From contig JAZQQF010000197.1 of the NCBI GenBank assembly GCA_045628925.1, positions 758 through 64,757 on the forward strand: a DNA stretch of 64,000 nucleotides, read 5' to 3'. Origin of the DNA: Oscillospiraceae bacterium. GTDB taxonomy: Bacteria; Bacillota; Clostridia; Oscillospirales; Oscillospiraceae. The notes under the pieces are model-generated. The model had not been told where the DNA came from. It saw only the letters and a program-made list of their open reading frames with translations, and did no database searches. How positions within the stretch are numbered: position 1 is the first letter of the stretch; the number at the start of each line of letters is the position of its first letter. A program made the translations under genes and the position numbers. Below, in pieces: positions 7,594 to 60,954 of this stretch.

Positions 7594-7950
7594 ATGGTCA
7601 GGATCAATACGGCTGCGGGTTCCATCCGCATTTCCAACGAGGTCTTTACCACGCTGGCCGGCGCGGCGGCGATGAGCTGCTTCGGCGTGCGGGGCATGGC
7701 GAAAAAGTCCGCCAGCGACGGGCTGGTGCACCTGCTGAAGCGGGAAGCCATGGGAAAGGGCGTGCGCGTCACCTTTCTGGAAGGGGAGGACGCGATCGCC
7801 ATCGAGCTGCATATCATTGTGAATAACGGGGTCAATATCCCCGTCCTCTGCGACGCCATCAGCTCCGCCGTTCGCTATAAGGTGACCGAGGCCACCGGCG
7901 TTCAGGTCAGGAGCGTGAACGTCTTTGTGGATTCCGTCATGCCGGAATGA
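7594..7950 (+). CDS. Asp23/Gls24 family envelope stress protein (YloU-like)
   Basis: 118 aa. Family-typical pattern I.IS..V...A..AA....GV..M. AGGAG RBS. Its stop overlaps the next ORF (ATGA). Confidence 0.9.
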   Translation: MVRINTAAGSIRISNEVFTTLAGAAAMSCFGVRGMAKKSASDGLVHLLKREAMGKGVRVTFLEGEDAIAIELHIIVNNGVNIPVLCDAISSAVRYKVTEATGVQVRSVNVFVDSVMPE

Positions 7951-7967
7951 GAGCGGAGGACAGAGAG

Positions 7968-21432: not shown

Positions 21433-21530
21433 ACAGGTCCCGGGAAACGCGTGAGCGGATCCCGGGAAAAAACGCGGATACACAGCCGGGAAAACCGGCT
21501 GAACCGATATTCAAAAACGGAGGTACGAAC

Positions 21531-45736: not shown

Positions 45737-45783
45737 GCGCTCCTCCCTGCTTTCTGTCGTTTCAAGATCTTCGATCGGGGATG

Positions 45784-46461: not shown

Positions 46462-46636
46462 GAGGCGCCTCCTGTTCGCTTCGGAGCCGGTGCGGCTCCT
46501 GTTTTTCGGCAGTATATCATAAATCGCGCCGGAATGGGAGAAAATCGCGGATAAATGCCGGATTTTTTGAAGCTGCCTGTTCTTTCCGCCGGCCCGGTCG
46601 GACGTTTCGACAGAATTCGATTTTTAGCGCGTAATG

Positions 46637-46665
46637 TTGACAAATTCGAGATGAGCTTGTATAAT
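46637..46665 (+). promoter_or_regulatory. consensus sigma-A promoter (TTGACA-17-TATAAT) at the head of the lipid cluster
   Basis: ttgaca at 46637-46642, exactly 17 nt of spacer, tataat at 46660-46665. It sits in an AT-rich stretch ~140 nt upstream of the ATG at 46805. Confidence 0.6.
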
Positions 46666-46804
46666 TACAGTTAAATAGTGCAATAAAGTGCGAAGCGCCG
46701 GAGAATATACTTTCCGGAGTGCGGCTTTCGGGCCGCAGCGGATAAAGGAAACCGGGAAACGCAGAGAAACCGATAGAAATTCGTTAGATGGGATACAGGC
46801 AGAT

Positions 46805-48754
46805 ATGAAGATCGAGACCCTGGGACCGTATAAAACACTGAATTCGTTTGTGTCGGCCAAGATAAACCGGTTCAATTCCGCGGAGCACAGTTTCCGCGCC
46901 ATGTTTGAACTGATGTTTTCCGAGAAGGAAAACGTGATCTATGAAAAGAGCAGCGGGTATCAGATCGAGTATACGAAATACGGCGAAGCCTGCGATCAGA
47001 CAAGCGAATGCGCGGCGCATCTTCGATTCCTGCTGAAACGTCTCCCGGATGATTCCATCGTCGGATTGTATATGAAAAATGACATCAGCTGGATCATTGC
47101 ATTCTGGGCGATCCTGAAAAGCGGGCACAGGCCGCTTCTGCTGAATACAAGACTGGGCGACGATATCATCAATCTGGTCATGCGCAATGCCGGCGCATCC
47201 GCAGTGATCACGGACGGAAAGACGTTCCCCGAGTTTGAGACCATTCCGTATGCGGATATCCGGCTGTCCGATCGCTGCGAACAGGCAGCGGAGCAGTTCG
47301 GTTCCGAGGTGCTTGTGATGTCCTCCGGCACGACAGCGCTCCCGAAGATCTGCGCATATTCCGCCGAGGAATTCTATTACCAGATCAACGACAGTTTTCA
47401 TATTATCTGTGAATGCAGACAGATCAAGAAACACTATGACGGTCAGCTGAAACTGCTGACATTTTTGCCGTTTTATCATGTTTTCGGGCTGATCGCCGTA
47501 TATATCTGGTTCGCGTTTTTTTCCAGAACGTTTGTCCATCTGAGCGATCTCGCACCGCAGACGATCATCAACACCATCCGGCGGCACAAGGTGACACATA
47601 TTTTCGCCGTTCCGATGTTCTGGAATGAAGTATATAAACAATCCGTAAAGACGATCAAAGGCCGCGGGGAGGAGACGTATCACCGGTTTTTGAAGGGCAT
47701 GGACATCGCGGAAAAGCTCCAGCTGGTACCCGTGCTGGGTTCCGCGTTTATCCGTCTGGCATTCCGGGAGGTCCGGGAGAACCTGTTCGGGGACAGCATC
47801 TGTTTTCTGATCACCGGCGGAAGCGAGATCCAGAGCGAGGTCCTTTCCTTTTTCAACCTGATCGGCTACCATCTTGCAAACGGATACGGCATGACGGAGA
47901 TCGGCATCACATCCGTTGAACTCAGCACGAAAAGAAATCTGCGGAACGCGGGCTATGTGGGAAAACCGTTCTCCTCCATCGAGTATCGGATCTCACCGGA
48001 CGGCTGCCTTCAGGTGAGCGGCAGGTCGACCGCCAGATATATCATGGAGGGCGAGAGAAAGAAAGCGCGTGACGAATGGTTTGACACGGGCGATATTGCG
48101 GAATGTGTCAACGGGCATTATCGGATCCTTGGCCGCAGAGATGACGTTGTGATATCCGAAAGCGGAGAAAACCTGAATCCGTTCCTGATCGAGCCGCTGC
48201 TTGCGGACGATCCGAATTATCAGATCTGCCTCATCGGGCACACGGAAAACAGACAGATCGTGCCGACGCTGCTTGTGTTTGCGGGCCGTCACGTGAGTGC
48301 GGAGAAGTACAGAAACGTCCGCCGGAATATCGAAAAGAAACTGCAGGACAACAGATTATCGACCCGGATCTCGAATATCGTATTTGTGCAGGAACCGCTG
48401 ATATCGCCGGATGACATCAAGATCAACCGTGCCCGGCTGAGAAAGCAGTATGATGAAAACGCGCTCAGCCTCCTGAATCCCGAACGGATCACAGACCGGG
48501 GCGCGGAGGACGATCCGGTCTATAACTATGTCAGAGAGCTGTTTGCCGCTGCGTTCGGCAAACCGGCAGGCGAATTCGGACCGGACACGGATTTCTTCCT
48601 GGATGAAGGCGGCAGCAGTCTGGACTATTTCGCGCTCATCTCCAAGATCCAGGAGGATCATGATATCCGATTCCCCGCATCGCAGGAGAAGACGATCTCT
48701 ACCATAGCGGAACTGAGCGCGTTTATTGAGGACGAACACAATCATGTGGGTTAA
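46805..48754 (+). CDS. adenylate-forming enzyme fused to a PCP-type carrier domain (A-T didomain, NRPS-like/fatty acyl-AMP ligase-like)
   Basis: AMP-binding motifs LVMSSGTTALPK, GYGMTE and WFDTGDIA..GRRDDVVISESGENLNP. The C-terminal carrier motif is DFFLDEGGSSLDYFALI. The start at 46805 was chosen over the GTG at 46688, which would lie almost at the predicted TSS. Confidence 0.85.
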   Translation: MKIETLGPYKTLNSFVSAKINRFNSAEHSFRAMFELMFSEKENVIYEKSSGYQIEYTKYGEACDQTSECAAHLRFLLKRLPDDSIVGLYMKNDISWIIAFWAILKSGHRPLLLNTRLGDDIINLVMRNAGASAVITDGKTFPEFETIPYADIRLSDRCEQAAEQFGSEVLVMSSGTTALPKICAYSAEEFYYQINDSFHIICECRQIKKHYDGQLKLLTFLPFYHVFGLIAVYIWFAFFSRTFVHLSDLAPQTIINTIRRHKVTHIFAVPMFWNEVYKQSVKTIKGRGEETYHRFLKGMDIAEKLQLVPVLGSAFIRLAFREVRENLFGDSICFLITGGSEIQSEVLSFFNLIGYHLANGYGMTEIGITSVELSTKRNLRNAGYVGKPFSSIEYRISPDGCLQVSGRSTARYIMEGERKKARDEWFDTGDIAECVNGHYRILGRRDDVVISESGENLNPFLIEPLLADDPNYQICLIGHTENRQIVPTLLVFAGRHVSAEKYRNVRRNIEKKLQDNRLSTRISNIVFVQEPLISPDDIKINRARLRKQYDENALSLLNPERITDRGAEDDPVYNYVRELFAAAFGKPAGEFGPDTDFFLDEGGSSLDYFALISKIQEDHDIRFPASQEKTISTIAELSAFIEDEHNHVG

Positions 48755-49379
48755 ATTTGTCAACGCCTTTACAAAGATCACCGGCTGGCCGGTCCAGTTC
48801 CTCTGCTTTCGCACGAAGGTGTATTACGAAGATCCGGCGATCCAGAGGAGAAAGCTGTCGGGGCCCGCGATCATCGTATCAAATCATACTTCGGTCTTTG
48901 ACTACGCAGTCTATCTGTTCGTATTCCTTTTTCGGACCCTCCGCTTTCAGATGGCGGAGGTCCTGTTCGAGAAAAAACCGCTGGGGCTGCTGCTGAAGGG
49001 ACTCGGCGGGATCCGGGTGAACCGATACTCACATGATCTGGGGTTCGTTACAAAATCGGAGGAGATCCTTCGCGGCGGCGGCGTGGTGGGCATTTTTCCG
49101 GAAGGCCGTCTGCCTAAGCCGGAGGAAGCGCGGCCGCTGCCGTTTTCTCCCAGCGTCGCGTATCTGGCGCTGTCCACAAAAGCGCCGATCATCCCCGTCT
49201 ATACGAACGGATCCTATTTCAACCGAAAAAGAGCGCGCGTGCTGATCGGCTGCCCGATGCACGCTTCACAGTTTCTGGACCCGGATATGACGGAAAAAGA
49301 GAACCTTGCGTATGTTACGGAGCGGATCAGAGACCGCATCATCGAACTGGGGAAAAAACTGGATGAAAAAGTCAAATAA
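48744..49379 (+). CDS. PlsC/LPLAT-family acyltransferase 1
   Basis: HX4D motif NHTSVFD, plus GGIRVNR and FPEGRLP blocks. The ATG at 48744 overlaps the upstream stop by 11 nt. Confidence 0.8.
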   Translation: MWVKFVNAFTKITGWPVQFLCFRTKVYYEDPAIQRRKLSGPAIIVSNHTSVFDYAVYLFVFLFRTLRFQMAEVLFEKKPLGLLLKGLGGIRVNRYSHDLGFVTKSEEILRGGGVVGIFPEGRLPKPEEARPLPFSPSVAYLALSTKAPIIPVYTNGSYFNRKRARVLIGCPMHASQFLDPDMTEKENLAYVTERIRDRIIELGKKLDEKVK

Positions 49380-50010
49380 AAGCCGGCTGTTTTCCATGAA
49401 ATATCTCTTTCACGATTTTGTGAAGCTGACAGCCATGCTCCCGGGCCTGATCGCCTTCCGGCCGAGGATCCTGTTTGAAAATGAGGCGGCGAGAAAACCG
49501 ATCCGGAATGCGGCGCTCCTGATCGGGAATCATGCAGGTTATTTTGACCCGGTATATATGCAGTTCGCCGTCTGGTACAGACGGCATCATTTCATCTGCA
49601 CGAAGGAGTTCTTTGAAGGGAAGAAGAGATTCTTCTTCAAGAACTTTCTCTGTATTCCCATTGACCGGGACAATTTCGGCATTGATTCCTTCCGGGAGAT
49701 CGTCTCGCACCTGAAGCAGGGCGAGCTTGTGAGTATGTTTCCGGAGGGGAAGATCGAGAACGGGCTGAAATCCTTCAAATCCGGGATGATCCTGATGGCC
49801 TTGCAGAGCGGGGCGCCGATCGTGCCCATGTATATCAGGAGCCAGAAAAAATGGACGGAACGCCTGACCATGGCGATCGGCGAACCGATCGATGTCTCGA
49901 ACGGCAGCGGCGCAAGACCGAGTATGTCTCAGATCAAAGAAGCGGCGGAGAGGCTGCACCAGAAAGAGATGCAGCTGCGGGAACTATGTGAAAGGGGTAA
50001 GAAAGGATGA
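49363..50010 (+). CDS. PlsC/LPLAT-family acyltransferase 2
   Basis: HX4D motif NHAGYFD, plus CIPIDRD and FPEGKI blocks. The ATG at 49363 overlaps the upstream gene by 17 nt. Confidence 0.8.
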   Translation: MKKSNKSRLFSMKYLFHDFVKLTAMLPGLIAFRPRILFENEAARKPIRNAALLIGNHAGYFDPVYMQFAVWYRRHHFICTKEFFEGKKRFFFKNFLCIPIDRDNFGIDSFREIVSHLKQGELVSMFPEGKIENGLKSFKSGMILMALQSGAPIVPMYIRSQKKWTERLTMAIGEPIDVSNGSGARPSMSQIKEAAERLHQKEMQLRELCERGKKG

Positions 50011-51521
50011 AAACGCAATCTGCAGAAGTCTTTTCCGGATATACAGACGCCGAAACCTTTGAAAAGATCGTCAATTATCCGTCTGTGAGCGCGATGTGGG
50101 AGCATTGCATTGCGGAATACGGAGCATTGCCCGCGGTCTGCGACGGCGAAAAGACATATACTTACGAAGAAACGGAAGCTGCGGTCTCCGGATTCAGAAC
50201 GGTCCTCAGAAATGCGCATCGGGATCCCGCGAAGCGGATCGGGATCTACGCGGCGAGTTCCTTCGATTTTGTGAAAGCCTTTCTCGCGGTGACGACGCTG
50301 GGGTATACCGCGGTGATCCTTCCGACACAGCTGGACGCGGGGACCGTGTTCGGGTGCTGCATGAAGTTCAATATCGGAACGCTGGTCTATCAGCCGGAGC
50401 TGGAACAGAACACCGACATTGCGGCGCAGCGGTGCGGCGGTCTTGCACGGATACGGACGGATGAGAGCAGCGAGGCGCACACACCGCTCGTCCCCTGCGA
50501 AGCGGCGGCCCCCTGCGTCATCATGTTCACGGGCGGTACGACCGGACGGAGCAAGGGCGCGCTGCTGTCAAACGGGGCGGTGATGCAGGGCGTCGTGAAC
50601 GGCTGCTACGGATATCAGGATGTTTTTTATCAGAGATATATGCTGGTCCTTCCGCTTTCGCACGTATTCGGCCTGATCCGCAATCTGCTCACGTCTCTGT
50701 ATACCGGCAGCTCCATCTTTATCTGCCGCAACACCAAGGATATGTTCCGGGATATGGCCGCCTTCCGCCCGACCATCTGGGTGGTCGTTCCCGCGCTGGC
50801 GGAAATGGCGCTGACACTGTCCAAAAAGTTCGGCAGAAATATGCTGGGCGCGGATATGAAATACATCATCTGCGGCGCGGCTGCCGTGTCGCCGTATCTG
50901 GTGCGGGAGTATCAGGCGTTCGGCATTTCCCTGTTTCCCGGATACGGTCTGACGGAATCCGCGAATCTCGTTTCCGGCAACCCGGAATCGTCGCGGAAGC
51001 CGGATTCGGTGGGGATCCTGTATCCGAATCAGGAATATCAGATCGTCGACGGAGAGCTGTGGCTCCGGGGCGCGAATATGCTGGACGCCTATGTGGGAGA
51101 AGCGGAAGAAGCATATACGGACGGGTGGTTCCGCACCGGAGACCTTGCCAGAGTGGACGAAGAGGGGTATCTGTACATTACCGGGCGGATCAAGGAGATC
51201 ATCGTACTGTCCAACGGTGAGAACATCTCGCCGGCAGAGGTGGAAGCCAGATTCAACGAGCTGCCCTTTGTGCAGGATTCACAGGTGTTTGAGGATGTGA
51301 GCGAGAGCGGCACGCATTTCCTCGCGCTGGAGATCGTTCCCCGGGCGACGGAACTGAAGAAGATCCAGACGGAGGACCCGCAGGGGTATATGATGGCGGA
51401 GCTGGAAAAGGTCAATCGGCAGCTTCCGGGCTATGAACGCGTCAACAGGATCGTGATCCGGGATTCGGATTTTGACAGAACACCAAGTATGAAGATTGTG
51501 AGATATCAGAAATGCAACTGA
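50007..51521 (+). CDS. AMP-dependent synthetase/ligase (acyl-CoA or acyl-carrier-protein ligase)
   Basis: Motifs FTGGTTGRSKGA, GYGLTES and WFRTGDLA..GRIKEIIVLSNGENISP, with a terminal Lys region SMKIVR. ATGA start/stop overlap at 50007. Confidence 0.9.
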   Translation: MKTQSAEVFSGYTDAETFEKIVNYPSVSAMWEHCIAEYGALPAVCDGEKTYTYEETEAAVSGFRTVLRNAHRDPAKRIGIYAASSFDFVKAFLAVTTLGYTAVILPTQLDAGTVFGCCMKFNIGTLVYQPELEQNTDIAAQRCGGLARIRTDESSEAHTPLVPCEAAAPCVIMFTGGTTGRSKGALLSNGAVMQGVVNGCYGYQDVFYQRYMLVLPLSHVFGLIRNLLTSLYTGSSIFICRNTKDMFRDMAAFRPTIWVVVPALAEMALTLSKKFGRNMLGADMKYIICGAAAVSPYLVREYQAFGISLFPGYGLTESANLVSGNPESSRKPDSVGILYPNQEYQIVDGELWLRGANMLDAYVGEAEEAYTDGWFRTGDLARVDEEGYLYITGRIKEIIVLSNGENISPAEVEARFNELPFVQDSQVFEDVSESGTHFLALEIVPRATELKKIQTEDPQGYMMAELEKVNRQLPGYERVNRIVIRDSDFDRTPSMKIVRYQKCN

Positions 51522-51769
51522 ACAGAATTGAAATATTCGAACGGCTGAAGGACATCCTTCTGCTTTCGGATGATCAGAATCAGGCGGCGATCGCGGCCTG
51601 CAGCGAAGACAGCGGGCTGATCACGGATCTGGGCCTGTCCTCTGTCGGAATGCTGTATGTCGTCATTGCCGCGGAAGAGACATTCGACATCCGCTTTGAA
51701 AATGTCGGCATGGCAGATTTTGAAACGGTGAAAGACGTGATCGATTACATAGAGGCAAGACTGAAATGA
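51512..51769 (+). CDS. acyl carrier protein (stand-alone, 85 aa)
   Basis: ACP-type attachment motif DLGLSSVGMLYVV and helix III EETFDIRF. It overlaps the ligase gene by 10 nt. Confidence 0.8.
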   Translation: MQLNRIEIFERLKDILLLSDDQNQAAIAACSEDSGLITDLGLSSVGMLYVVIAAEETFDIRFENVGMADFETVKDVIDYIEARLK

Positions 51770-52812
51770 AGTGGTGGCCGGACGTATGCTGCCCGGGCGA
51801 TATGGTCAGAGCCAGCATCGGCTCGGTGAAACACTACGGTGTTTTCATCAGCGAACAGGAGATCATCCAGTTCGGCCCTCCGCCGATCGCACGGACCGCG
51901 ATCGATGACAGCAGCATCTGCGTCTGCGCTGCGACAGCGGAAGCGTTTTCCTGCGGGTATATCATCGAAAAGGCGATCCTGGATAAAAGCGAGAAGCGCA
52001 GACGTCTGCCCCCGCAGAAAACGATCGAGATCGCACGTTCGCGCATGGGAGAGACCGGGTATAATCTGCTCCATAATAACTGCGAACACTTCGCCTATGA
52101 GTGCGTGTTCGGCATCAAAAAAAGCACGCAGGAGGACGAGGCCCGGGAACGGTGGAACAGCCGGCCGGTCATGGACGTATATCTGGCGCCGCTTCCGGAC
52201 GAGGTGGCGGATCAGCACTTCCTGTGCAAGGAGCGGGAGGAGGAGATCCGGAACACCGCAAATGAGAAGCTGAGGATGTGCCGGCTTTTTGACTGGCAGG
52301 TCCTGCTGTATGCGGCAAACCGCTCGTTCGGGCTGAAAGAAAGCGATCTCACGTTTCAGAAAACGTCCGCCGGGAAATGGAAGTGCGACCGGTTCTGGTT
52401 TTCCCTGTCGCATACGGACGGCGCCGTCCTTGTGGGGGTGTCCAACGAAAAGATCGGCGTGGATATCGAGAACACGGCTTCATGGGAACGGAAACCGTAT
52501 GCGGATCCCGCTACCGAAAAAAAGCTGCGCAGGAGGATCTGCACTTCCGGGGAGGCGGCCTCCGGGGAGCCGGACCTCATGCACCTCTGGACGCTGAAGG
52601 AAAGCATCTTCAAATGCTATGGCCGCTCGTTTATTCCGACGAGGATCGACACGGATAAATACCGCGCAGAGACCTTTCAGATCTCGGCGTTCCCTGAAAT
52701 GCTGATGGCGGTGTGCGGTGAGCAGCTGGATCATGTCCGGTTCTATCAGTTTGACGATGGTCATGCGCGATCCGTCCATTCGGAAATGATCAGAAACGGA
52801 AAGCGCCAATGA
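51766..52812 (+). CDS. fusion protein: LRAT/PLAAT-like (NlpC/P60 superfamily) acyltransferase domain + Sfp-type 4'-phosphopantetheinyl transferase
   Basis: The N-terminal half has KHYGVFIS (His box) and LLHNNCEHFAYECVFG (the NCEHF catalytic Cys motif of LRAT/H-RAS-like suppressor enzymes). The C-terminal half has FSLSHTDG, IGVDIEN and LWTLKESIFKCYG (PPTase motifs). ATGA overlap at 51766. Confidence 0.8.
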   Translation: MKWWPDVCCPGDMVRASIGSVKHYGVFISEQEIIQFGPPPIARTAIDDSSICVCAATAEAFSCGYIIEKAILDKSEKRRRLPPQKTIEIARSRMGETGYNLLHNNCEHFAYECVFGIKKSTQEDEARERWNSRPVMDVYLAPLPDEVADQHFLCKEREEEIRNTANEKLRMCRLFDWQVLLYAANRSFGLKESDLTFQKTSAGKWKCDRFWFSLSHTDGAVLVGVSNEKIGVDIENTASWERKPYADPATEKKLRRRICTSGEAASGEPDLMHLWTLKESIFKCYGRSFIPTRIDTDKYRAETFQISAFPEMLMAVCGEQLDHVRFYQFDDGHARSVHSEMIRNGKRQ

Positions 52813-53732
52813 CATGGATCTATTGTCTGCTGATCGCTGTATCGGCGTATGTCATCTTTATTGCGGCTCCCGCACTCGTTGCATATCGCTCGGTCTTCTG
52901 CCGGAAGACCGGAGTCCCGTTTGTCGATCGCGACCTGAAGAATTCCTGTCTGGCGCCATATGAGAAACGGATCGCAGCGGATTTCGACTTTTTCCGGCGG
53001 CACGAAAAAGAAAGCGTGTCGATATGCGCGGACGATGGGGTGAAGCTGGTCGGAAGCTATTATTCCGAAGGGAACCGTCGGCTGGCGATCTGCATACACG
53101 GCTATAACTCCACGCCGCTGAACTGCTTCGCGTCATTGGGGCGGTTCCTGCTTTCAGCCGGATACGATGTTCTGATGCCCGACCAGCGGGCGCACGGAGA
53201 AAGCGGCGGGAAACATTCCACGCTCGGACTTACCGAGCAATATGACGTGCTTTCGTGGATCGGCTGGGCAGACGGCCTTGCGGAAGTGGAGGAGGTCATC
53301 CTGGTCGGGGTGTCCATGGGCTGCGCGTCAGTCGCCTATGCTTCCGATAAGATCAGAAGCCCGAAGGTGAAGGGGATGATCCTGGACTGCGGTTTTGCTT
53401 CGCCCTACGAGCAGATCAAAACCGATTGTCAGGCGCGCCACGTCCCGTATCCGCTGATCCTGCCGCTCATCAGAGATCACGCGAAACGCAGGCTGAAGAT
53501 CGATATTTCGCAGCAGGTGGGTACCTCTCTGGAGCATACGGCGATCCCTGCGCTGTTCATGCACGGGGGAAAGGATACGACAGTCGATCTTCGGGTGACG
53601 GAGGAGCACTACAGACGCTGCAGCTCGAAAAAAGAATTCTATTTTGCGGAAAACGGGTTCCACGCCAATGCATTTATGACCGGCGGCAAAGAGGCTGAGG
53701 CTGCGGTCTCTTCCTTCCTTGCATCAATATAA
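52809..53732 (+). CDS. membrane-anchored alpha/beta hydrolase 1
   Basis: N-terminal TM segment (WIYCLLIAVSAYVIFIAAPALVAY), nucleophile elbow GVSMG, acid HGGKDTTV and His GFHAN. ATGA overlap at 52809. Confidence 0.8.
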   Translation: MTWIYCLLIAVSAYVIFIAAPALVAYRSVFCRKTGVPFVDRDLKNSCLAPYEKRIAADFDFFRRHEKESVSICADDGVKLVGSYYSEGNRRLAICIHGYNSTPLNCFASLGRFLLSAGYDVLMPDQRAHGESGGKHSTLGLTEQYDVLSWIGWADGLAEVEEVILVGVSMGCASVAYASDKIRSPKVKGMILDCGFASPYEQIKTDCQARHVPYPLILPLIRDHAKRRLKIDISQQVGTSLEHTAIPALFMHGGKDTTVDLRVTEEHYRRCSSKKEFYFAENGFHANAFMTGGKEAEAAVSSFLASI

Positions 53733-53745
53733 TGGAGGCGAGTTT

Positions 53746-54681
53746 ATGCAGAGCTTTGTCATTTTAGCGGATTCGACCTGCGACCTGCCGGGTGAGTTTC
53801 AGGAAAAGTATGAGATCGTCGTGATCCCGGGGCACCTGATCTTTCCGGATAAACGGGACATTCCGGCTTTCCTGTCCTGGGATACCTGCTCCAGAGAAGA
53901 CTTCTATGCGGAGCTGAAAAGCGACCCGAACGGGTTTTCAACGTCGCCGCCCAATATCGCCGAGTATTATCAGGCATTCATGCGGTATGTATCCGAAGGA
54001 TATCCCGTTTTGTGCCTGACGATCTCCAGCGGGATCAGCGGCGCCTATAACTTTGCCTCGGCAGCAAAAAAACAGGTGCTGGAGCACGAGCCGTCCGCCA
54101 GGATCGAGGTCATCGACACGCTGCGCTTCGGACCGGCGATCGGCCTGATGGCGGTCCACGCTGCGATGCTGCGGGAGAGCGGCCGGAGCATGGACGAGAC
54201 AGCGCGGTATCTGGAAGAGAATAAAAACCGTTTTCATCAGGCAGGCTGGCTGGATGATCTGTCCTTTGTCGCCAAAAAGGGGAGACTGACCCACGCGAAG
54301 GCGTTTCTGGGCACGCTGGCCGGCGTGAAGCCCATCGGCGAATTTGACTACAACGGGCTGACAACGGTCATCGGGAAAGCGAAGGGGGCGAAAGCCGCCT
54401 ACGCAGCACTGCTGACCTATATCCGGAAGACCATTCAGGATCCGTCTGAGCAGATCATTTTCATCGCGCAGACGAATCGCCTCGAACAGGCAAAGGAATA
54501 TCAGCGGATGATCGAAGCGGAGATCAGGCCGAAGGCCGTCTTCATCCACGATGTGTATCCTTCCTGCGGCATCAATATCGGACCGGGGCTGATGGCGGCT
54601 TATTATATGGGAACTCCGATCTCGAGCGACCTCGCGGAAGAGCGCGGGATCCTGGAGCTTGCACTGAATGGGGAGAAATAA
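53746..54681 (+). CDS. DegV family fatty-acid-binding protein (FakB-like)
   Basis: The ATG at 53746 has GGAGG 7 nt upstream. The N-terminus FVILADSTCDLP and the SSGISG(A)Y motif are DegV hallmarks. Confidence 0.9.
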   Translation: MQSFVILADSTCDLPGEFQEKYEIVVIPGHLIFPDKRDIPAFLSWDTCSREDFYAELKSDPNGFSTSPPNIAEYYQAFMRYVSEGYPVLCLTISSGISGAYNFASAAKKQVLEHEPSARIEVIDTLRFGPAIGLMAVHAAMLRESGRSMDETARYLEENKNRFHQAGWLDDLSFVAKKGRLTHAKAFLGTLAGVKPIGEFDYNGLTTVIGKAKGAKAAYAALLTYIRKTIQDPSEQIIFIAQTNRLEQAKEYQRMIEAEIRPKAVFIHDVYPSCGINIGPGLMAAYYMGTPISSDLAEERGILELALNGEK

Positions 54682-54684
54682 GAA

Positions 54685-56028
54685 ATGAAACAGATCAAAG
54701 GAAAAGCCGGTATCATCCTGTACGCCCTGTCCGGTATGGGCATCAATATGCTGAATATCATGATGGGGTCCTATCTGTGCAGCGCGCTCCTCATCGGCGG
54801 CTTCGGAAAGGACGTCATTCCGTTCCAGACCTATGCCCAGAGGGATCTGATCGTTCCGGCTGTCTGGGCAGTGTTCTCTCTGGCCGCCAAGATCCTTGAC
54901 GGCATTATCGACATTCCGATGGCCTCTTTTTCCGATCAGCTGAAGACCCGCTGGGGACGTCGGCGTCCGTCCATCCTGATCGGTATGGTCATGACGATCG
55001 TTTCGTATCTGCTGTTCCTTGTGATCCCCGATAAGGGCGGCGTGTCCATCCTGAATACGGTTTACTACGGGATCGTTCTCTGCCTCTTCTATGCGTTTTA
55101 TACGCTGACCATGGTCTCTTTTTATGCCACCTTTACGGAGATCGTTGAGACGACGGAAGACCGCAATCTCCTGTCAAATGCGAAGTCTTTCTTTGATGTC
55201 GTGTATTTCGTCCTGGGTTATGTCGTGGTCAGAATGCTTCTGAACGGGCTCAACGTCCGCACGGTCGCGCTGCTGGTCCTGCCCATTGCCCTCACGATGC
55301 TGATCCCGCTCTTCATGATCAAGGAGAAGTCTACCAAAGAGGGCGCGGAGAGAACGACGGAAACGGTCCATCTGGTGCAGTCGCTGTGCCTGACGTTTAA
55401 GAACAAAAAGTTTATCGTCTGGATGATCACGTATGCGTTTATGACGTTCGGCGTGCAGCTGTTCCTCGGCGGGATCAATGAATATTTCTCATTCGTTGGT
55501 CTGAATATGATCAAGATCATGACGACCACCTTCGCGCCGGTGCCGTTCATGCTGATCTTTTATAACCGCCTGATCAAAAAGCGCGGGTTTGGCTTTGCGT
55601 TTCGGTATGTCCTGCTGATGTATGTGATCGGAATGGTATTTCTGGGGATCGTCGGTCTGCTGGAGCCGGCGCCCGAGAAGGAATGGCTGTCGATCCTGGC
55701 GGGCCTGTGCTGTTCCGTTGCGGTCGGCGCGCTCTTCTCCGTGGCGTATTCGGTCCCTTCGCAGCTTGCCGCAGACGAAGAAAAGGAGACCGGGATCTCC
55801 AACTCCGCCATGTACTTTGCCGTTCAGGGACTCTTTTCCGGCGTGGCTTCGGGCATTGCGACCGGCGTCGTGCTGACGGCACTGAAGGGAAGCGAGACCA
55901 ATCCGACGAACGCCATGCAGTATATGACGTTTGTCGCTGCGGCGGGATGCTTTGCCGCGATCCTCTTCACGTGGCTGCTTCCCAGATCGATCATTACGAT
56001 GGGGCGTCAGGATAAAAAGCAGCATTGA
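54685..56028 (+). CDS. MFS transporter of the glycoside-pentoside-hexuronide (GPH/MFS_2) type
   Basis: 447 aa with ~12 TM segments. GPH signature LDGIIDIPMASFSDQLKTRWGRRRP. Confidence 0.85.
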   Translation: MKQIKGKAGIILYALSGMGINMLNIMMGSYLCSALLIGGFGKDVIPFQTYAQRDLIVPAVWAVFSLAAKILDGIIDIPMASFSDQLKTRWGRRRPSILIGMVMTIVSYLLFLVIPDKGGVSILNTVYYGIVLCLFYAFYTLTMVSFYATFTEIVETTEDRNLLSNAKSFFDVVYFVLGYVVVRMLLNGLNVRTVALLVLPIALTMLIPLFMIKEKSTKEGAERTTETVHLVQSLCLTFKNKKFIVWMITYAFMTFGVQLFLGGINEYFSFVGLNMIKIMTTTFAPVPFMLIFYNRLIKKRGFGFAFRYVLLMYVIGMVFLGIVGLLEPAPEKEWLSILAGLCCSVAVGALFSVAYSVPSQLAADEEKETGISNSAMYFAVQGLFSGVASGIATGVVLTALKGSETNPTNAMQYMTFVAAAGCFAAILFTWLLPRSIITMGRQDKKQH

Positions 56029-56036
56029 GGCACCCG

Positions 56037-57686
56037 ATGAAAACAAAGAAGATCAACGGAACACATTTTGAAAAGATGCTCCAGAACGGGCTTGCCAATC
56101 TGTGCAGGTTCGAGGAGGAGCTGAACAGCCTGAACGTCTTTCCGGTAGCGGACGGGGATACTGGCTCGAATATGCGGGCAACGCTGGCGTATGGCCTTCG
56201 GGAGGCGGCCAGCGCACCCGCGGCGGGCGCCTATCTGAAATCGCTGTCGGAGGCGATGCTTTTCGGCGCGCACGGGAATTCCGGCGTCATTCTGTCGCAG
56301 CTGTTCAGAGGGATCTATCTGGCGCTTTCCAGATGCGGCAATGTAAACCCGGGGGAATTGCGCAATGCCTTTATCATGGGGTATAAAACAGCGTATTCTG
56401 CGGTCGTTCGCCCGGTGGAGGGCACGATCCTCACGGTCGCGCGGGAAGGCATCGAGAATATCCGGAATCAGATCGACCGCGGTTCGACATTTGAGGATCT
56501 GCTCAGTATGTATGTCGCGGAAATGCGGAAAAGCCTTGCGCGTACACCGGATATCCTCCCGCAGCTGAAGGATGCGGGCGTGGTCGACAGCGGCGCTCTT
56601 GGCTATATTATCCTTGTGGAAGGAATGCTGGGCTATCTGTTCGGCGATATCATCCCATCCGATGAGATACCGAAGAAGGAGAAACTGATGCCGGAAACCA
56701 CCCCGGGTGAGGCGCTTTTCAACGAGTACAGTATGTTTGAAGACGGCTATTGCGTGGAATTTGTTCTTCAGCTCATGAAAAGCGGTCAGTATTCACAGCA
56801 CTTTTCCCTGAGCCGGTATATTGCGGATCTGAAGGATTTCGGCAATTCGATCGTCGCGGTGCAGAGCGACAGCCGAGTGAAGGTGCATATCCACACATTC
56901 AAGCCGGGAAAGATCCTGTGGCTGAGTCAGGAATACGGAGAATTCGTTTCCTGCAAGGTGGAAAATATGCAGATCCAGCATAATGCCACGATCCCGGAAG
57001 CGGAAGCCGCAAAAGAGCGGAAGGCCTTTTCGGTCATCTCGGTCTGTGATTGTGCGGCAACGCAGGAACTGTTCAGCGACCTTGGCAGCTCCTCCGTGAT
57101 CTGCGGCGGCAGCAAAATGGATGTTTCCGTTCAGGACTTTATCAATGCGCTGAATACAGAGAATGCGCAGACCACCGTGATCCTGCCAGACAATCCGAAT
57201 CTGCTCCACGTTGCGAAACAGGCAAAGGAGCTTTTCCGGGAAGGCGACGTCGTGATCCTGGAAACGAAGACGATCCCGGAAGGGTATTGCGCGCTGGCCA
57301 TGAGCAATCCGGACGAAACGGATATCGACCGGCGCATTCGGCAGATGCAGTCCGGATTCGAGGGGATCCATACGCTTTCGGCGGCGATCGCCAGCAGGGC
57401 GTATCATACCGATCAGGTGGAGTGCCTGCCGGGAATGCGGATCGCTGTTCTGGACGGCGAAGTCGTCAGCGCCGGGGACGAGGATGTTCAGGTGTTATGC
57501 GAGGGACTGAAACAGATACCGGACATCCGTGAGAAAGAGTCCTGCATCATTTTCCGCGGGGAAAACAGTTCCGAAGCAATGGAGCCGCTCCTGGAGGAAC
57601 GGATCCGCAGCCTTTTCCCGGATCTGGAGATCAGTTTCCTGTATTGCGGCTCGCAGCTGTATCTGTGGTCTGCAGCGATTTCGTAA
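56037..57686 (+). CDS. DAK2 domain fusion protein (second YloV/FakA-like copy)
   Basis: LNVFPVADGDTGSNM Dak2 signature. ~550 aa and collinear with the copy at 7968-9626. ATG at 56037 with GAGG upstream; the TTG at 56025 overlaps the MFS stop. Confidence 0.9.
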   Translation: MKTKKINGTHFEKMLQNGLANLCRFEEELNSLNVFPVADGDTGSNMRATLAYGLREAASAPAAGAYLKSLSEAMLFGAHGNSGVILSQLFRGIYLALSRCGNVNPGELRNAFIMGYKTAYSAVVRPVEGTILTVAREGIENIRNQIDRGSTFEDLLSMYVAEMRKSLARTPDILPQLKDAGVVDSGALGYIILVEGMLGYLFGDIIPSDEIPKKEKLMPETTPGEALFNEYSMFEDGYCVEFVLQLMKSGQYSQHFSLSRYIADLKDFGNSIVAVQSDSRVKVHIHTFKPGKILWLSQEYGEFVSCKVENMQIQHNATIPEAEAAKERKAFSVISVCDCAATQELFSDLGSSSVICGGSKMDVSVQDFINALNTENAQTTVILPDNPNLLHVAKQAKELFREGDVVILETKTIPEGYCALAMSNPDETDIDRRIRQMQSGFEGIHTLSAAIASRAYHTDQVECLPGMRIAVLDGEVVSAGDEDVQVLCEGLKQIPDIREKESCIIFRGENSSEAMEPLLEERIRSLFPDLEISFLYCGSQLYLWSAAIS

Positions 57687-57697
57687 AGGTAGAAAAA

Positions 57698-58645
57698 ATG
57701 AGCATCGAAGGTCTTGTGATAACCATTGTACTATCGGCACTCGTTCTGCTTTTTCTCGCACCGACGATCCTCCTTTCCTACGTTCTGTACCGGATCATCC
57801 TTGTCAGGACCGGTCCGGGAAAGTGGAGCAGGGAATGCAGTATGCCGGACGACGCGGAAAGCAGACAGATGTTCGATATCGGGCTCGAATGGGCGCAGAA
57901 ACATTCCGAATGCAGATCCGGTGTGTCGATCAGCAATGATGGGTTCCGTCTGGAAGGGGAGTACTTCGATTTCGGTTTCGAGAAAGCGGTCATCATCATT
58001 CCGGGCAGAACGGAGTCCTGCCTGTATTCCTATTATTTCGCGGAACCGTTTCTGACCGAGGGCTATAATGTGCTCGTGATCGACAACCGCTCGCATGGAC
58101 TGTCGGAGGGGCGGCGCAGCTCGCTGGGCTTTAAGGAGTACCGGGATATCCTCGCATGGGGCAGGTTCCTGCACAGCGAGAAAGGCGTAACGTCCGTTGT
58201 CCTGCATGGGATCTGCATCGGCGCTTCCACCGCGCTCTTTGCGCTGACCTCCGCGGACTGCCCGTCTTATTTTCGCGGCATGATCGCTGAGGGAATGTAT
58301 ACGACCTTTGCCGAATCCTTCAAAAATCATATGATCGTGGACAAAAGACCGATCTTCCCGTTTTTCATGGCGACAATGCTTCAGATCAGACTGCTGTCCG
58401 GGGCGAACGTTGTATCCGATGGGCCGATCAAACGGATCGATCAGCTGCAGAAGCCGATCCTGTTTTTGCACAGCCGGGAGGATCTGTTCTCCCTTCCGGA
58501 GAAGGCGCAGATCCTGTTCGACAAATGTACATCCCGAAAAACACTGGTCTGGTTTGACAAAGGTGCGCATTCGCGCATCCGCATCAACAATACGGAAGCA
58601 TATGACAATGCGATCTCCTGTTTCCTTCGCAGCGATATCCATTAA
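57698..58645 (+). CDS. membrane-anchored alpha/beta hydrolase 2 (Cys in the nucleophile elbow)
   Basis: N-terminal TM segment (LVITIVLSALVLLFLAPTILLSYVLY). The elbow reads HGICIGAS (G-x-C-x-G). Acid HSREDLF and His GAHSR. Confidence 0.75.
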   Translation: MSIEGLVITIVLSALVLLFLAPTILLSYVLYRIILVRTGPGKWSRECSMPDDAESRQMFDIGLEWAQKHSECRSGVSISNDGFRLEGEYFDFGFEKAVIIIPGRTESCLYSYYFAEPFLTEGYNVLVIDNRSHGLSEGRRSSLGFKEYRDILAWGRFLHSEKGVTSVVLHGICIGASTALFALTSADCPSYFRGMIAEGMYTTFAESFKNHMIVDKRPIFPFFMATMLQIRLLSGANVVSDGPIKRIDQLQKPILFLHSREDLFSLPEKAQILFDKCTSRKTLVWFDKGAHSRIRINNTEAYDNAISCFLRSDIH

Positions 58646-58671
58646 ACCGGTTCAGAAAGGAGGCGCAGTCT

Positions 58672-58917
58672 ATGGAACCGAATCTTCAAAATGAGTATAA
58701 ACCGTTGAGTCCATGGGCATATTGGGGGCTTTCGATCCTTTACACGATCCCGATCGTCGGGTTTATTTTCATGATCGTTTTTTCGATCAGCAAAGCGAAC
58801 ATCAATCGCAGAAACTTTACACGATCTTATTGGTGCTGGTATATTCTAGTCGGAATCGCGGTGCTCATCCTGGCAGTGACCGGCGTTCTGGGAGACCTCA
58901 TATACTATATGTTCTAA
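58672..58917 (+). CDS. small two-TM membrane protein
   Basis: 81 aa. AAAGGAGG RBS. Two hydrophobic helices flank a basic loop (KANINRRNFTR). Confidence 0.55.
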   Translation: MEPNLQNEYKPLSPWAYWGLSILYTIPIVGFIFMIVFSISKANINRRNFTRSYWCWYILVGIAVLILAVTGVLGDLIYYMF

Positions 58918-58938
58918 TGTGTTGTGGGAGGAGACATT

Positions 58939-59316
58939 ATGTTCTGCAAAAACTGTGGAAGCAATGTGGCAGATGGAACGAAATACTGCCCGAGCTGCGG
59001 CACTGCGATGACGGCAGGCCCGTCTCAATATCAGTTCAGCCCCGCTCCGGCGCCGCAAGCCGCTGCCGGAAACCCGGTCCCCGTGCTTGTGTGGGGTATT
59101 ATCGGACTGGCTTTCGCCTGCACGTTCTATCTCAGCATTCTCGGCATCATTTTTTCGGCCGTTGGCAAGAAGAAAGCAAGGGAATACACGGCCGTGTACG
59201 GAACGGCATCTAATCAGGCGCGCATCGGAGGGAAACTTGCGAACGCAGGCATGATCGTCGGCATTATTCTCGCGATTCTGAGCCTGTTCGTTCTGGTCGT
59301 TTTGCTGGCAAGCTGA
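58939..59316 (+). CDS. zinc-ribbon membrane protein
   Basis: ATG at 58939 with GGGAGGAG upstream. MFCKNCGSNVADGTKYCPSCG ribbon, a Pro-rich linker and two TM helices. Confidence 0.6.
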   Translation: MFCKNCGSNVADGTKYCPSCGTAMTAGPSQYQFSPAPAPQAAAGNPVPVLVWGIIGLAFACTFYLSILGIIFSAVGKKKAREYTAVYGTASNQARIGGKLANAGMIVGIILAILSLFVLVVLLAS

Positions 59317-59359
59317 TCGGCAGCAGCCGGTCGATCGAATCTGATTCGGTTTGAGAATG

Positions 59360-59395
59360 AAGTCAGGGAGAGCAATGCGCTTTCCCTGACTTTCT
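59360..59395 (+). terminator. internal terminator-like hairpin within the cluster
   Basis: aagtcaggga / tccctgactt 10-bp stem with a 13-nt loop, followed by tct. Confidence 0.4.
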
Positions 59396-59445
59396 CCGTA
59401 ATGTTTATTTCTGCACTTTTTGGAAAGAATCGGAAGGTGGGCAAT

Positions 59446-60522
59446 ATGACGCACAAGAACAGAAAACAATCACGCGCTTTGACAGCAAAAAGGGTGTTTT
59501 GTATCGTATTGGCGGTTATGGTCGCACTGTCCCTTCTTTCGATGATGGCGTCGGTGATCGTGTTCCGAGCCGTTTTTCAGCGCAGAGACGGGGGACCGTA
59601 TGAACTGAAAATGGCATATTCCGACAGCGACGCGGCAAAGCATCCCCGACAGAGCGTCGAATTCCGCTCCGGGGATCGTACGCTCAGAGGCAATATCTAC
59701 GGAATGGATAACCATTCCGGGATCATTATTCTGGTCAACGGGTTTCACGCAACGACGGACAACCACCTGGCGGAAGCGTTCTTCTTCGCGGATGCGGGAT
59801 GGACCGTGTTCACGTTTGACGGGACCGGCACGGGGAGAAGCGACGGAACGAGCGTGATCGGACTGGAGCAATCGGGAAAAGACGTGCGGGCAGCGATCGA
59901 TTATATTTCGGGCGATGCGCAATTATCGGACAGGCCGATCTTCCTGTACGGACACAGCGCCGGGGGATACGCCGTCTCGACCCTGTGCGACGACGACAGA
60001 GTCCGCGCAACGGTATGTATTTCCGGTTTCAATTCTCCCTGCGAGATCATGGAACACTTCAGCAGGAAGTATGTCGGCTTTTTGGCTGAAGTGAGCTATC
60101 CCTTCCTGCTTGCTTACGACAAGCTGCTGTTCGGGGCGTCCGGGAACGTATCGGCCCGGGAGCATATCCTCAGCGCCGACCGGCCGGTCCTGATCGTTCA
60201 GGGAACGGATGACGAGATCGTGCCGCTGGAACTCAGCATCTATACTGCCTGCAGATCGGACCGCAGCAGCAACATTGAGCTTGCGCTGATCAGCGACGAG
60301 TATCGGAACCGGCATTCGACGATCTGGCTCACGGCGGATGCGGCCAAAGAGCTTGCACAGCTTCAGAGCCATGTGGAAAGCATCGAAACGGACGGCATTT
60401 CCGAAGAAGAGGAAGAACAGCTGGCAGAGAACGCTGCGCTGTCAGATGAGATATTCAGACGGGTCGATACCGAATTTCTGGAATATGTTTCCGCATTTTT
60501 CACGCGGGCGCTGACTCGCTGA
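59446..60522 (+). CDS. membrane-anchored alpha/beta hydrolase 3
   Basis: ATG at 59446. TM segment VFCIVLAVMVALSLLSMMASVIVF, elbow GHSAGG, acid QGTDDEIV and His NRHST. Acidic C-terminal tail. Confidence 0.8.
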   Translation: MTHKNRKQSRALTAKRVFCIVLAVMVALSLLSMMASVIVFRAVFQRRDGGPYELKMAYSDSDAAKHPRQSVEFRSGDRTLRGNIYGMDNHSGIIILVNGFHATTDNHLAEAFFFADAGWTVFTFDGTGTGRSDGTSVIGLEQSGKDVRAAIDYISGDAQLSDRPIFLYGHSAGGYAVSTLCDDDRVRATVCISGFNSPCEIMEHFSRKYVGFLAEVSYPFLLAYDKLLFGASGNVSAREHILSADRPVLIVQGTDDEIVPLELSIYTACRSDRSSNIELALISDEYRNRHSTIWLTADAAKELAQLQSHVESIETDGISEEEEEQLAENAALSDEIFRRVDTEFLEYVSAFFTRALTR

Positions 60523-60555
60523 TGCACGGGAAACCGCACGCGGAAAAGCATGGAA

Positions 60556-60641
60556 AGACCCGGAATACCTGAAAAAACAGGTGCTCCGGGTCTTGCGTTC
60601 CGAGAGAAGAGGCGGGGGCGGGAAAAGCCCCTGCCTCTTCT
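60556..60641 (+). terminator. two consecutive hairpins ending the cluster
   Basis: Hairpin 1 is agacccgga..acctg/caggt..tccgggtct (60556-60593). Hairpin 2 is agaagaggcgggg/cccctgcctcttct (60605-60641). Neither has a strong U-tract. Confidence 0.4.
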
Positions 60642-60775
60642 ATATCTGTCGCTGCCGCTGACAGGAAAAACTTCCGGTAACCTTTTCCGGAAATGCGCCG
60701 TATTTACGACAGACCGGTATCAGCGGGAAATCCGTATTGCATAACAGAGCCTGTAAACGAATTTGCGCATAAAGA

Positions 60776-60805
60776 TTGACATTACCCCCGCGTTTCATGT
60801 ATACT
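60776..60805 (+). promoter_or_regulatory. promoter candidate (TTGACA-18-TATACT)
   Basis: ttgaca at 60776-60781 and tatact at 60800-60805, ~150 nt upstream of the ATG at 60955. Confidence 0.45.
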
Positions 60806-60954
60806 TACCTGATACTGGCAATTCGGTGATCTGCCCTTCGTTCTGAGGCTCGCTTTTCCGAAGGATAAACAGCTCTGTCAGTGCTTTTTCGATCATTTTC
60901 TGACCGGACACGTGTTTCGAGTACGGTCAGGTCATACAGGAGGAGAACAGAAAA

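Follow-up and report, generated by a model that had tools for sequence, protein, structure and literature searches.

A conserved 14-gene operon of gut and rumen Clostridia, a candidate for carrier-dependent incorporation of exogenous acyl chains

What would a gut bacterium do with two acyl-activating ligases, two carriers, two acyltransferases and an enzyme for priming carriers, all encoded side by side? The question is raised by a 64,000-nucleotide stretch of an Oscillospiraceae bacterium genome (GenBank assembly GCA_045628925.1, contig JAZQQF010000197.1, positions 758 to 64,757), hereafter the window. In it, 14 genes (g1 to g14) lie on the + strand between 46805 and 60522, within a feature that spans 46637-60641 from its promoter to its terminal hairpins. 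The junctions from g1 to g14 measure -11, -17, -4, -10, -4, -4, +13, +3, +8, +11, +26, +21 and +129 nt, six of them being overlaps. These junctions and the coordinates agree with a preliminary description, made from the DNA letters, that had listed 14 same-strand open reading frames (ORFs) with their overlaps and gaps. The operon is strongly conserved and appears to be uncharacterised. Our best reading is a salvage or remodelling system akin to Aas but split, duplicated and fitted with dedicated carriers, self-contained and horizontally spread in gut and rumen Clostridia. That it builds exogenous acyl chains into a lipid acceptor by way of carrier proteins is, in our judgement, an even call.

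The first six genes encode proteins of acyl activation, carriage and transfer. g1 (46805..48754) is an acyl-adenylating (ANL) enzyme with a fused carrier of the peptidyl carrier protein (PCP) type (Pfam AMP-binding, 127.8 bits; PP-binding, 41.5 bits), and its SSGTT, YGMTE and GENLNP motifs, A10 Lys and GGxS Ser were at least 95% conserved in 65 homologues. Catalytic-residue conservation was at least 95% for each enzyme family, assessed in 45-80 homologues per gene. The closest solved structures to g1 were MenE, 4-chlorobenzoate-CoA ligase and FadD13. Two acyltransferases of the PlsC/LPLAT family follow, namely g2 or PlsCa (48744..49379; NHxxxxD and FPExR; Pfam Acyltransferase, 65.2 bits) and g3 or PlsCb (49363..50010; NHxxxxDP and FPEG; 73.7 bits), and in 71 homologues of the first and 73 of the second, conservation of the HX4D motif (NH....D) was at least 95%. 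For both, the top NCBIfam match was the acyltransferase domain of the Aas-type MFS-PlsC-ligase model PRK08633, and BLASTP aligned PlsCb with the N-terminal domain of Escherichia coli Aas (22% identity, E = 4e-8). The C-terminal domain of Aas was matched in turn by g4 (28% identity, E = 2e-25, BLASTP), a fatty-acyl ligase and putative acyl-ACP synthetase (ACP, acyl carrier protein; 50007..51521; AMP-binding, 173.1 bits, plus AMP-binding_C_3). Both g1 and g4 resemble ANL enzymes for carboxylic and fatty acids (MenE, FadD13, oxalyl-CoA and feruloyl-CoA ligases), and neither protein resembles amino-acid adenylation domains. g4 overlaps g5 (51512..51769) by 10 nt, and 72 of 74 loci have no more than 20 nt between the two. 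g5 is a dedicated ACP of 85 aa (DLGLSS) that matched NCBIfam ACP models at E = 3e-9, below their cut-off, and Pfam PP-binding at 20.6 bits, slightly under the cut-off of 20.8; its carrier Ser was conserved in 78 homologues.

The sixth gene, g6 (51766..52812), fuses a Cys acyltransferase of the PLAAT/LRAT type to a phosphopantetheinyl transferase (PPTase) of the Sfp type, with Pfam scores of 52.0 bits for LRAT (cut-off 24.3) and 31.7 bits for ACPS (cut-off 25). H23 and the Cys of NCEHF (C106) in the LRAT half were invariant in 20 sequences, as were G231, D233 and E235 (GxD..E) and W275, K278, E279 and K283 (WxxKE(S/A)xxK) in the PPTase half. Foldseek searches with an AlphaFold (AF2) model of g6 (pLDDT 90.8, pTM 0.78) recovered the two-lobed Sfp fold (4mrt, TMt 0.61, E = 2.8e-10) and human PLAAT2/PLAAT3 (TMt 0.77-0.79; 0.78 for PLAAT3). 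No transmembrane (TM) segment was found in g6 of the window, and the median was 0 segments over 80 homologues. The PLAAT-like domain, joined to a PPTase that binds carriers and devoid of a membrane anchor, has acyl-carrier thioesters as its most plausible substrates.

Profile searches recovered the domains that the preliminary description had assigned to all of the genes, g5 in Pfam at 20.6 against 20.8 bits. The same description had noted the lack of non-ribosomal peptide synthetase (NRPS) condensation, ketosynthase (KS) and PlsX/PlsY domains, and Pfam detected no condensation, KS, reductase, PlsX or PlsY domain in the 14 proteins. A classical NRPS or polyketide synthase was excluded because condensation, KS and reductase domains were missing from them.

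The LRAT-PPTase fusion was present in 436 of 185,579 GTDB species representatives. Nearly all of them are uncultured gut bacteria of humans, ruminants, horses and birds that belong to the Oscillospiraceae, Lachnospiraceae, Christensenellales and other Clostridia. It had 292 relatives in a 90%-clustered protein collection, and 136 clusters in a 50%-clustered library at E <= 1e-30, nearly all full-length (330-350 aa). The 14 window proteins were then located in each of 80 loci that we retrieved. g1-g6 were found, with order and strand preserved, in 56-59 of the 60 loci that held sufficient upstream DNA, and an overlap or a junction of 20 nt or less was preserved in 85-100% for the core gene pairs. 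The loci fell into two classes. In class A (56 loci including the window), g1-g6 are followed by the hydrolase Hyd1, DegV, MFS, FakA and Hyd2 proteins in 34-38 of the 38 complete loci; zinc-ribbon membrane proteins are usual in the tail and a third hydrolase, Hyd3, was present in 25 of the 38. In class B (15 loci, mostly Christensenellales-like metagenome-assembled genomes), the order is AMP-PCP, MFS, PlsCa, PlsCb, ligase, ACP and LRAT-PPTase, and the Fak pair, Hyd1 and Hyd2 are missing. The absence of these four from class B indicates that the conserved machine consists of the two ligase-carrier-PlsC lines, the LRAT-PPTase and the MFS protein. Thus homologues of the cluster do co-localise elsewhere, with gene order kept across dozens of species, and scattered homologues, which the preliminary description had named as evidence that would count against it, were not what we found.

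Natural fusions join the same neighbours. One locus (L053:5825-8005) encodes PlsCb and the AMP-ligase as a single ORF, 727 aa long, whose domains follow one another as in E. coli Aas (719 aa, nearly equal in length), and three encode PlsCa-PlsCb as a single ORF of about 425-431 aa (L008:6956-8251, L046:877-2151 and L080:2781-4064). Apparent PlsCb-ligase fusions in L024 and L040 were rejected because of an in-frame stop between the genes. In L066 a divergent ligase is positioned upstream of AMP-PCP. LRAT domains also occur in other Clostridial contexts: on the Clostridium butyricum CBM588 megaplasmid (NZ_CP132345.1; locus L083, 7917-9167), a 416-aa LRAT-family protein without a PPTase adjoins IS66 and IS5 transposases and a phospholipase D gene. 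Plasmid carriage of the operon was rejected, as this lone megaplasmid case is an unrelated LRAT-only protein.

The transporter of the conserved machine, g9 (54685..56028), is a cation symporter of the GPH type (Pfam MFS_2, 102.9 bits against a cut-off of 27). Its signature DGIID...RWGRRRP, in helices 2-3, was invariant in 25 sequences (D72, D76 and G91-P95) and aligns with the MelB motif, and this cation-site signature suggests import. The TIGR00792 score (58 against 231) marks g9 as a divergent GPH member. Class B proteins are about 180 aa longer (620-660 aa compared with 447 aa in the window), with a C-terminal extension that carries extra hydrophobic segments; examples are L029:5049-6956, L063:5048-6916 and 13 other loci, and the gene lies between AMP-PCP and PlsCa.

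Two class A genes encode a second, divergent Fak pair. g8 (53746..54681) is a DegV/FakB-like fatty-acid-binding protein (Pfam DegV, 197.3 bits) that scored 204.8 with TIGR00762 (cut-off 99.7) and 113 with the FakB1 equivalog (cut-off 350). g10 (56037..57686) is a FakA-like kinase paralogue with Dak2, middle and C-terminal domains (114.1, 74.8 and 129.9 bits); it exceeded the YloV subfamily cut-off (449 against 396) and fell below the FakA_VfrB equivalog (333 against 975), and its DGDTG and Cys/His motifs were conserved among homologues. The window also holds a canonical FakA/YloV of 559 aa at 7947..9626 (+), with a YloV score of 568 bits and a host-like G+C content at third codon positions (GC3) of 0.86. 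This protein is likewise below the FakA equivalog (484 against 975), so that the cut-off is centred on Staphylococcus. It shares 30% identity with g10, which reaches 40-61% with the FakAs encoded in the clusters of other species. The genome therefore has two FakA paralogues, which is unusual for Firmicutes. In the Firmicute pathway the FakA product normally passes to PlsY/PlsX; from the canonical FakA, a standard route from Fak to PlsY/PlsX is presumed in the host. PlsX and PlsY are absent from the recurrent flank families as they are from the 14 genes.

Three further class A enzymes belong to the Pfam family Hydrolase_4. Hyd1 (g7, 52809..53732) is an alpha/beta-hydrolase with a Ser nucleophile (GVSMG) and a membrane anchor, and its predicted orientation is towards the cytoplasm; by the positive-inside rule, the K/R count flanking its TM segment was 0.1 before and 2.0 after it in 57 homologues. 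Hyd2 (g11, 57698..58645) is a membrane-anchored alpha/beta-fold enzyme with a Cys nucleophile (GICIG), again predicted to face the cytoplasm. Its C173 was invariant in 25 sequences and aligns with the catalytic Ser of the Pyrococcus esterase 5g59; Cys-nucleophile alpha/beta enzymes are frequently transferases. Hyd3 (g14, 59446..60522) is a signal-anchored Ser alpha/beta-hydrolase (GHSAG) with 5.1 K/R residues before and 2.0 after the TM segment (32 homologues), and is predicted to be extracytoplasmic. The catalytic domains of Hyd1 and Hyd2 would thus lie at the cytoplasmic face, and only that of Hyd3 outside. The preliminary description had taken the three for paralogous hydrolases. The common family stands, but Hyd1 and Hyd2 share 25% identity, Hyd3 matches neither at E < 0.01 and Hyd2 has a Cys nucleophile. 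It had also proposed that the anchored hydrolases free fatty acids; the topology of Hyd3 fits extracellular release, but that predicted for Hyd1 and Hyd2 does not.

Two small membrane proteins lie between Hyd2 and Hyd3. g12 (58672..58917) has two TM segments and is weakly conserved; a family search gave no match, and tblastn over the fetched loci found it in L001 only. g13 (58939..59316) combines a zinc ribbon with a DUF4190-like membrane domain (Pfam). Clustering of 500 flank ORFs revealed no extra conserved gene (regulator, glycosyltransferase or head-group enzyme), and zinc-ribbon membrane proteins, which are non-enzymatic, were the sole extra family recurring near related clusters (30 loci). 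There are three zinc-ribbon proteins in the window, at 1445-2272 (+), 44936-45736 (-) and 58939-59316 (+).

How could these parts work together? In the scheme that we infer, the Sfp-type half of g6 would prime the PCP of g1 and the ACP g5. g1 would adenylate one acyl chain and load its own PCP, and g4 would adenylate another and load g5. PlsCa and PlsCb would each draw on one acyl-carrier and esterify two positions of an acceptor, which could be a lysolipid, glycerol-phosphate or a glyceryl head group delivered by the cation-coupled g9. The PLAAT/LRAT half of g6, kept near the carriers by its PPTase half, would form an acyl-Cys intermediate and might clear or off-load acyl-carriers as an editing step, or shuttle acyl chains between phospholipid and carrier. 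In class A, the outward Hyd3 may release fatty acids from complex lipids, to be captured by the DegV/FakA paralogues, while the cytoplasm-facing Hyd1 (Ser) and Hyd2 (Cys, thioester-forming) may deacylate or transacylate lipids at the inner membrane face. Such an operon would serve the scavenging or the remodelling of lipids. The confirmed domains and conserved catalytic residues, the tight synteny, the lack of another recurrent flank family, the carboxylic- and fatty-acid ligases, the links to Aas, the fusions, the GPH cation-site signature of g9 and the accessory character of the cluster are all consistent with this scheme.

Several points weigh against it. No acceptor-specific enzyme (head-group transferase, glycosyltransferase or PlsX/PlsY) was found, which leaves the lipid class unconstrained. 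The nearest solved relatives of g1 include aryl-acid ligases (MenE and 4-chlorobenzoate-CoA ligase), and one of the two chains may therefore not be a fatty acid. The GPH-type MFS protein of the preliminary description stands, but it is MelB-like and has no specific similarity to LplT, the transporter partner of Aas that the description had cited: in profile comparisons (hhalign), g9 matched E. coli MelB with 86.8% probability and E. coli LplT with about 1%. GPH members mostly carry glycosides, and neither sequence nor profile searches gave a solved relative of g9. The two parallel lines are not obligatory, given that g4 is absent from L011 and L028 and both g4 and the ACP from L033. The scheme does not explain what a Fak pair would do in a cluster that lacks PlsX and PlsY. 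The membrane topologies come from simple hydropathy and positive-inside counts over 32-57 homologues. Finally, every cluster protein stayed below the NCBIfam equivalog cut-offs, so that none can be called a recognised orthologue of an enzyme that has been characterised.

A more specific form of the salvage reading can be put forward, which we regard as doubtful when all of its parts are taken jointly. An imported lysolipid or head-group glyceride would be turned back into a diacyl membrane lipid with two exogenous fatty acids, without need for type II fatty-acid synthesis (FASII), AcpP or CoA, and the orthogonal carriers would set the position of each chain. g9 would be a bacterial counterpart of Mfsd2a, the LRAT-PPTase a carrier enzyme that primes and edits, or trans-loads, and Hyd2 a Cys-dependent membrane transacylase.

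Could the product of the cluster instead be an acylated metabolite or signalling lipid of a specialised kind, perhaps secreted? Its logic would be akin to that of the Clostridial fatty-acid-amide (FAA) NRPS-like pathways, with PlsC and LRAT enzymes in place of a condensation domain, an alpha/beta enzyme for release and the MFS protein for export. We consider this unlikely, while giving it serious weight. A stand-alone adenylating enzyme, an ACP, an Sfp-type PPTase and a hydrolase are the parts list of an FAA cluster, and the A-PCP architecture of g1, its aryl-acid ligase relatives, the Cys nucleophile of Hyd2 with its transferase associations and the patchy, island-like distribution, as in secondary-metabolite clusters, all suit a biosynthetic role. 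Against this, neither condensation, KS and reductase domains nor tailoring enzymes were found in the cluster, and the MFS protein bears the cation-symport signature of GPH importers. The FakA/DegV pair and the Aas-like PlsC domains indicate bulk handling of fatty acids, and members of the PlsC family are typically glycerolipid acyltransferases.

The expression signals of the operon bear on another alternative. A sigma-70-type promoter, TTGACA-17-TATAAT, lies at 46637..46665 (+) and matches the consensus at 12 of 12 positions. It is the sole perfect match in the 16 kb scanned (45500-61500), where we estimate a chance expectation of about 0.006 per 32 kb of strand; promoter-like sites with at least 9 of 12 matches were not enriched (10 observed against 9.6 expected). 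The preliminary description had placed a perfect promoter at the head of the operon and a double hairpin at its end, and both were borne out. The two strong hairpins, a putative terminator, lie at 60555..60594 and 60605..60641 (+). Together (60555-60641) they have a folding energy of -74.1 kcal/mol (z = -7.4), which none of 200 shuffles equalled, and a clear T-tract was not seen at them. The 5' leader of about 140 nt (46666..46804) showed no recognised RNA element. Rfam gave no match at the gathering threshold across the whole window and none at E <= 1 in 46450-46900, and the leader folded no better than shuffles (z = -0.6), so that a riboswitch or leader RNA was ruled out. A conserved operator 5' of g1 was rejected as well, since a k-mer scan of 62 loci returned just AT-rich and promoter-like words.

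A strong consensus promoter and accessory status would suit a defence or repair system, in which antimicrobial free fatty acids are detoxified, or lysolipids generated by host or dietary phospholipases re-acylated, through rapid esterification into membrane lipid. The parts required are identical to those of the salvage scheme, the rumen and gut are rich in toxic unsaturated free fatty acids and lysolipids, and repair is also the function of the E. coli Aas/LplT cycle (PMC8154325). Neither a regulator nor a stress-responsive element was found beside the operon, however, and sequence by itself does not separate this role from nutritional scavenging; we regard it as improbable.

The composition and the surroundings of the cluster speak to its origin. 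Its GC3 is 0.68, compared with 0.82 +/- 0.05 for 31 upstream host genes, and GC drops from about 0.61 to 0.53-0.56 from the cluster head (about 46.5 kb) past the cluster end to the window edge (64000). As the low GC continues beyond the cluster, the putative island may exceed the 14 genes. tblastx of the window flanks against the 80 loci gave no matches; a shared insertion site was excluded by this result, and there are no tRNA genes in the window. The operon neighbours are unrelated to lipid metabolism (flavin reductase, zinc-ribbon protein, ADP-ribosylglycohydrolase, surface amidase, a 627-aa protein and GNAT). With the GC3 contrast and a canonical FakA elsewhere in the window, the cluster has the look of an accessory module that was acquired. 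That the operon performs housekeeping phospholipid synthesis for Clostridia auxotrophic for fatty acids, with the two PlsCs as the only glycerol-3-phosphate and lysophosphatidate acyltransferases and private carriers and PPTase replacing AcpP/AcpS after FASII loss, is very improbable: activation, carriers, priming and two acylations would suffice to convert glycerol-3-phosphate to phosphatidate, and the genomes of many hosts, uncultured bacteria of the gut, may be reduced, but the GC3 island, the unrelated flanks in every genome examined, the scatter of the 436 species across several Clostridial families and the canonical FakA of host composition, which by analogy with the Firmicute pathway implies a standard route, favour the opposite view.

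Other features of the window were recorded in passing. Just beyond the hairpins, a TTGACA-18-TATACT promoter (60776-60805, 11 of 12 matches) precedes the 627-aa ORF at 60955-62838 (+), which has no Pfam or NCBIfam match and a GC3 of 0.69, low like that of the cluster. A 1349-aa ORF at 35367-39416 (-) has host-like codon bias and no Pfam family at E <= 1e-4. Two cell-surface or contact-related proteins, unrelated to the cluster, are an RHS-repeat protein (21339-23120, +) and a 950-aa surface protein (39676-42528, +) with amidase_6, fn3, Listeria-Bacteroides repeat and Cu-amine-oxidase N1 domains. At the window start (20-844, +), a PaaK-like phenylacetate-CoA ligase is truncated to its C-terminal part; it is an ANL enzyme, also unrelated to the cluster.

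What would the operon mean for its hosts? Gram-positive gut bacteria take up host and dietary fatty acids via FakAB. The operon suggests a second fatty-acid route, based on carrier proteins and found widely, in at least 436 species, among the gut and rumen Clostridia that have been studied least. Its unusual parts are the LRAT-PPTase fusion, the dual private carriers, the second Fak pair and the Cys alpha/beta enzyme. The GPH-type MFS protein is a candidate for the entry of lysolipids or other amphiphiles into Gram-positive cells, the two private ligase-carrier-PlsC lines for the choice of acyl-chain position without FASII, and the LRAT-PPTase for a role of bacterial LRAT/PLAAT homologues. Such a route would be relevant to predicting resistance to FASII inhibitors, to rumen tolerance of toxic dietary fatty acids and to a possible output of host-active lipids.

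How does the operon compare with known systems? The preliminary description knew of no system of this composition, and we found no description of the architecture or of the LRAT-PPTase fusion in the full-text literature, a coverage that leaves out most subscription journals. The operon is like the Aas/LplT, FAA and Fak systems in its workings yet belongs to none of them. In the FAA NRPS-like clusters of gut Clostridia (OaaA/OaaACP/OaaC; ebf/ecf), a fatty-acid adenylating enzyme loads a dedicated ACP, and a PPTase and a hydrolase are encoded in the cluster (PMC10871352; PMC13310621). Clade and habitat are shared, and the stand-alone A domain, the ACP and the in-cluster PPTase are matched by g4, g5 and the C-terminal half of g6. 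Those clusters, however, have a free-standing condensation domain for transfer to an amine and an SCP2-like protein, whereas here there are two PlsCs, an LRAT, a second ligase-carrier, an MFS protein and a Fak pair; without a condensation domain, the operon is not an FAA cluster. With FakA/FakB it shares all three FakA domains (g10) and a DegV protein (g8), but this is a second, divergent pair below the equivalog cut-offs, placed inside a carrier/acyltransferase operon without PlsX/PlsY and absent in class B. The mammalian PLAAT/HRASLS/LRAT enzymes have the same fold as the N-terminal half of g6 (TMt 0.77-0.79) and its invariant His and NCEHF Cys; in g6 there is no C-terminal membrane anchor, and the C-terminus is instead an Sfp-type PPTase.

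Two further systems recall parts of the operon. In Rhodobacteria, a pair made of a specialised ACP and an acyl-CoA-synthetase-like protein serves serine palmitoyltransferase in bacterial sphingolipid synthesis, outside FASII (PMC9386255). This is a precedent for a dedicated ligase-ACP pair feeding one lipid-synthesis enzyme, although the acceptor enzyme there is pyridoxal phosphate-dependent serine palmitoyltransferase rather than PlsC, the taxa differ and the ligase-carrier line is single. In Chlamydia trachomatis, AasC (CT776) and CT775 are adjacent, separate genes for an acyl-ACP synthetase and a PlsC-type LPLAT, through which host fatty acids enter bacterial lipids (PMC5693948). This system comprises one ligase, one LPLAT and the housekeeping ACP, with no PPTase, LRAT, Fak, MFS or hydrolase component, in contrast to the operon.

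The nearest comparison is with Aas-LplT of E. coli, a cycle that re-acylates 2-acyl-glycerophosphoethanolamine, and with the MFS-PlsC-AAS fusion proteins of NCBIfam PRK08633. Aas-LplT and the operon both combine a PlsC-type acyltransferase, an acyl-ACP-forming ANL ligase (putative in the operon) and an MFS protein, there a lipid transporter; one half of Aas is matched by g3 and the other by g4, and the L053 fusion has the Aas order. The differences are no less clear. Aas relies on the housekeeping AcpP and works with a transporter of the LplT family (TC 2.A.1.42), whereas the operon has its own PCP, ACP and Sfp-type PPTase and a GPH-type MFS protein; having no LplT-type MFS protein and making no use of AcpP, it is not a member of the Aas/LplT system. 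In the operon, the genes are split and duplicated into two ligases, two carriers and two PlsCs; an LRAT, alpha/beta enzymes and a Fak pair come on top, and all of this is found in Gram-positive hosts.

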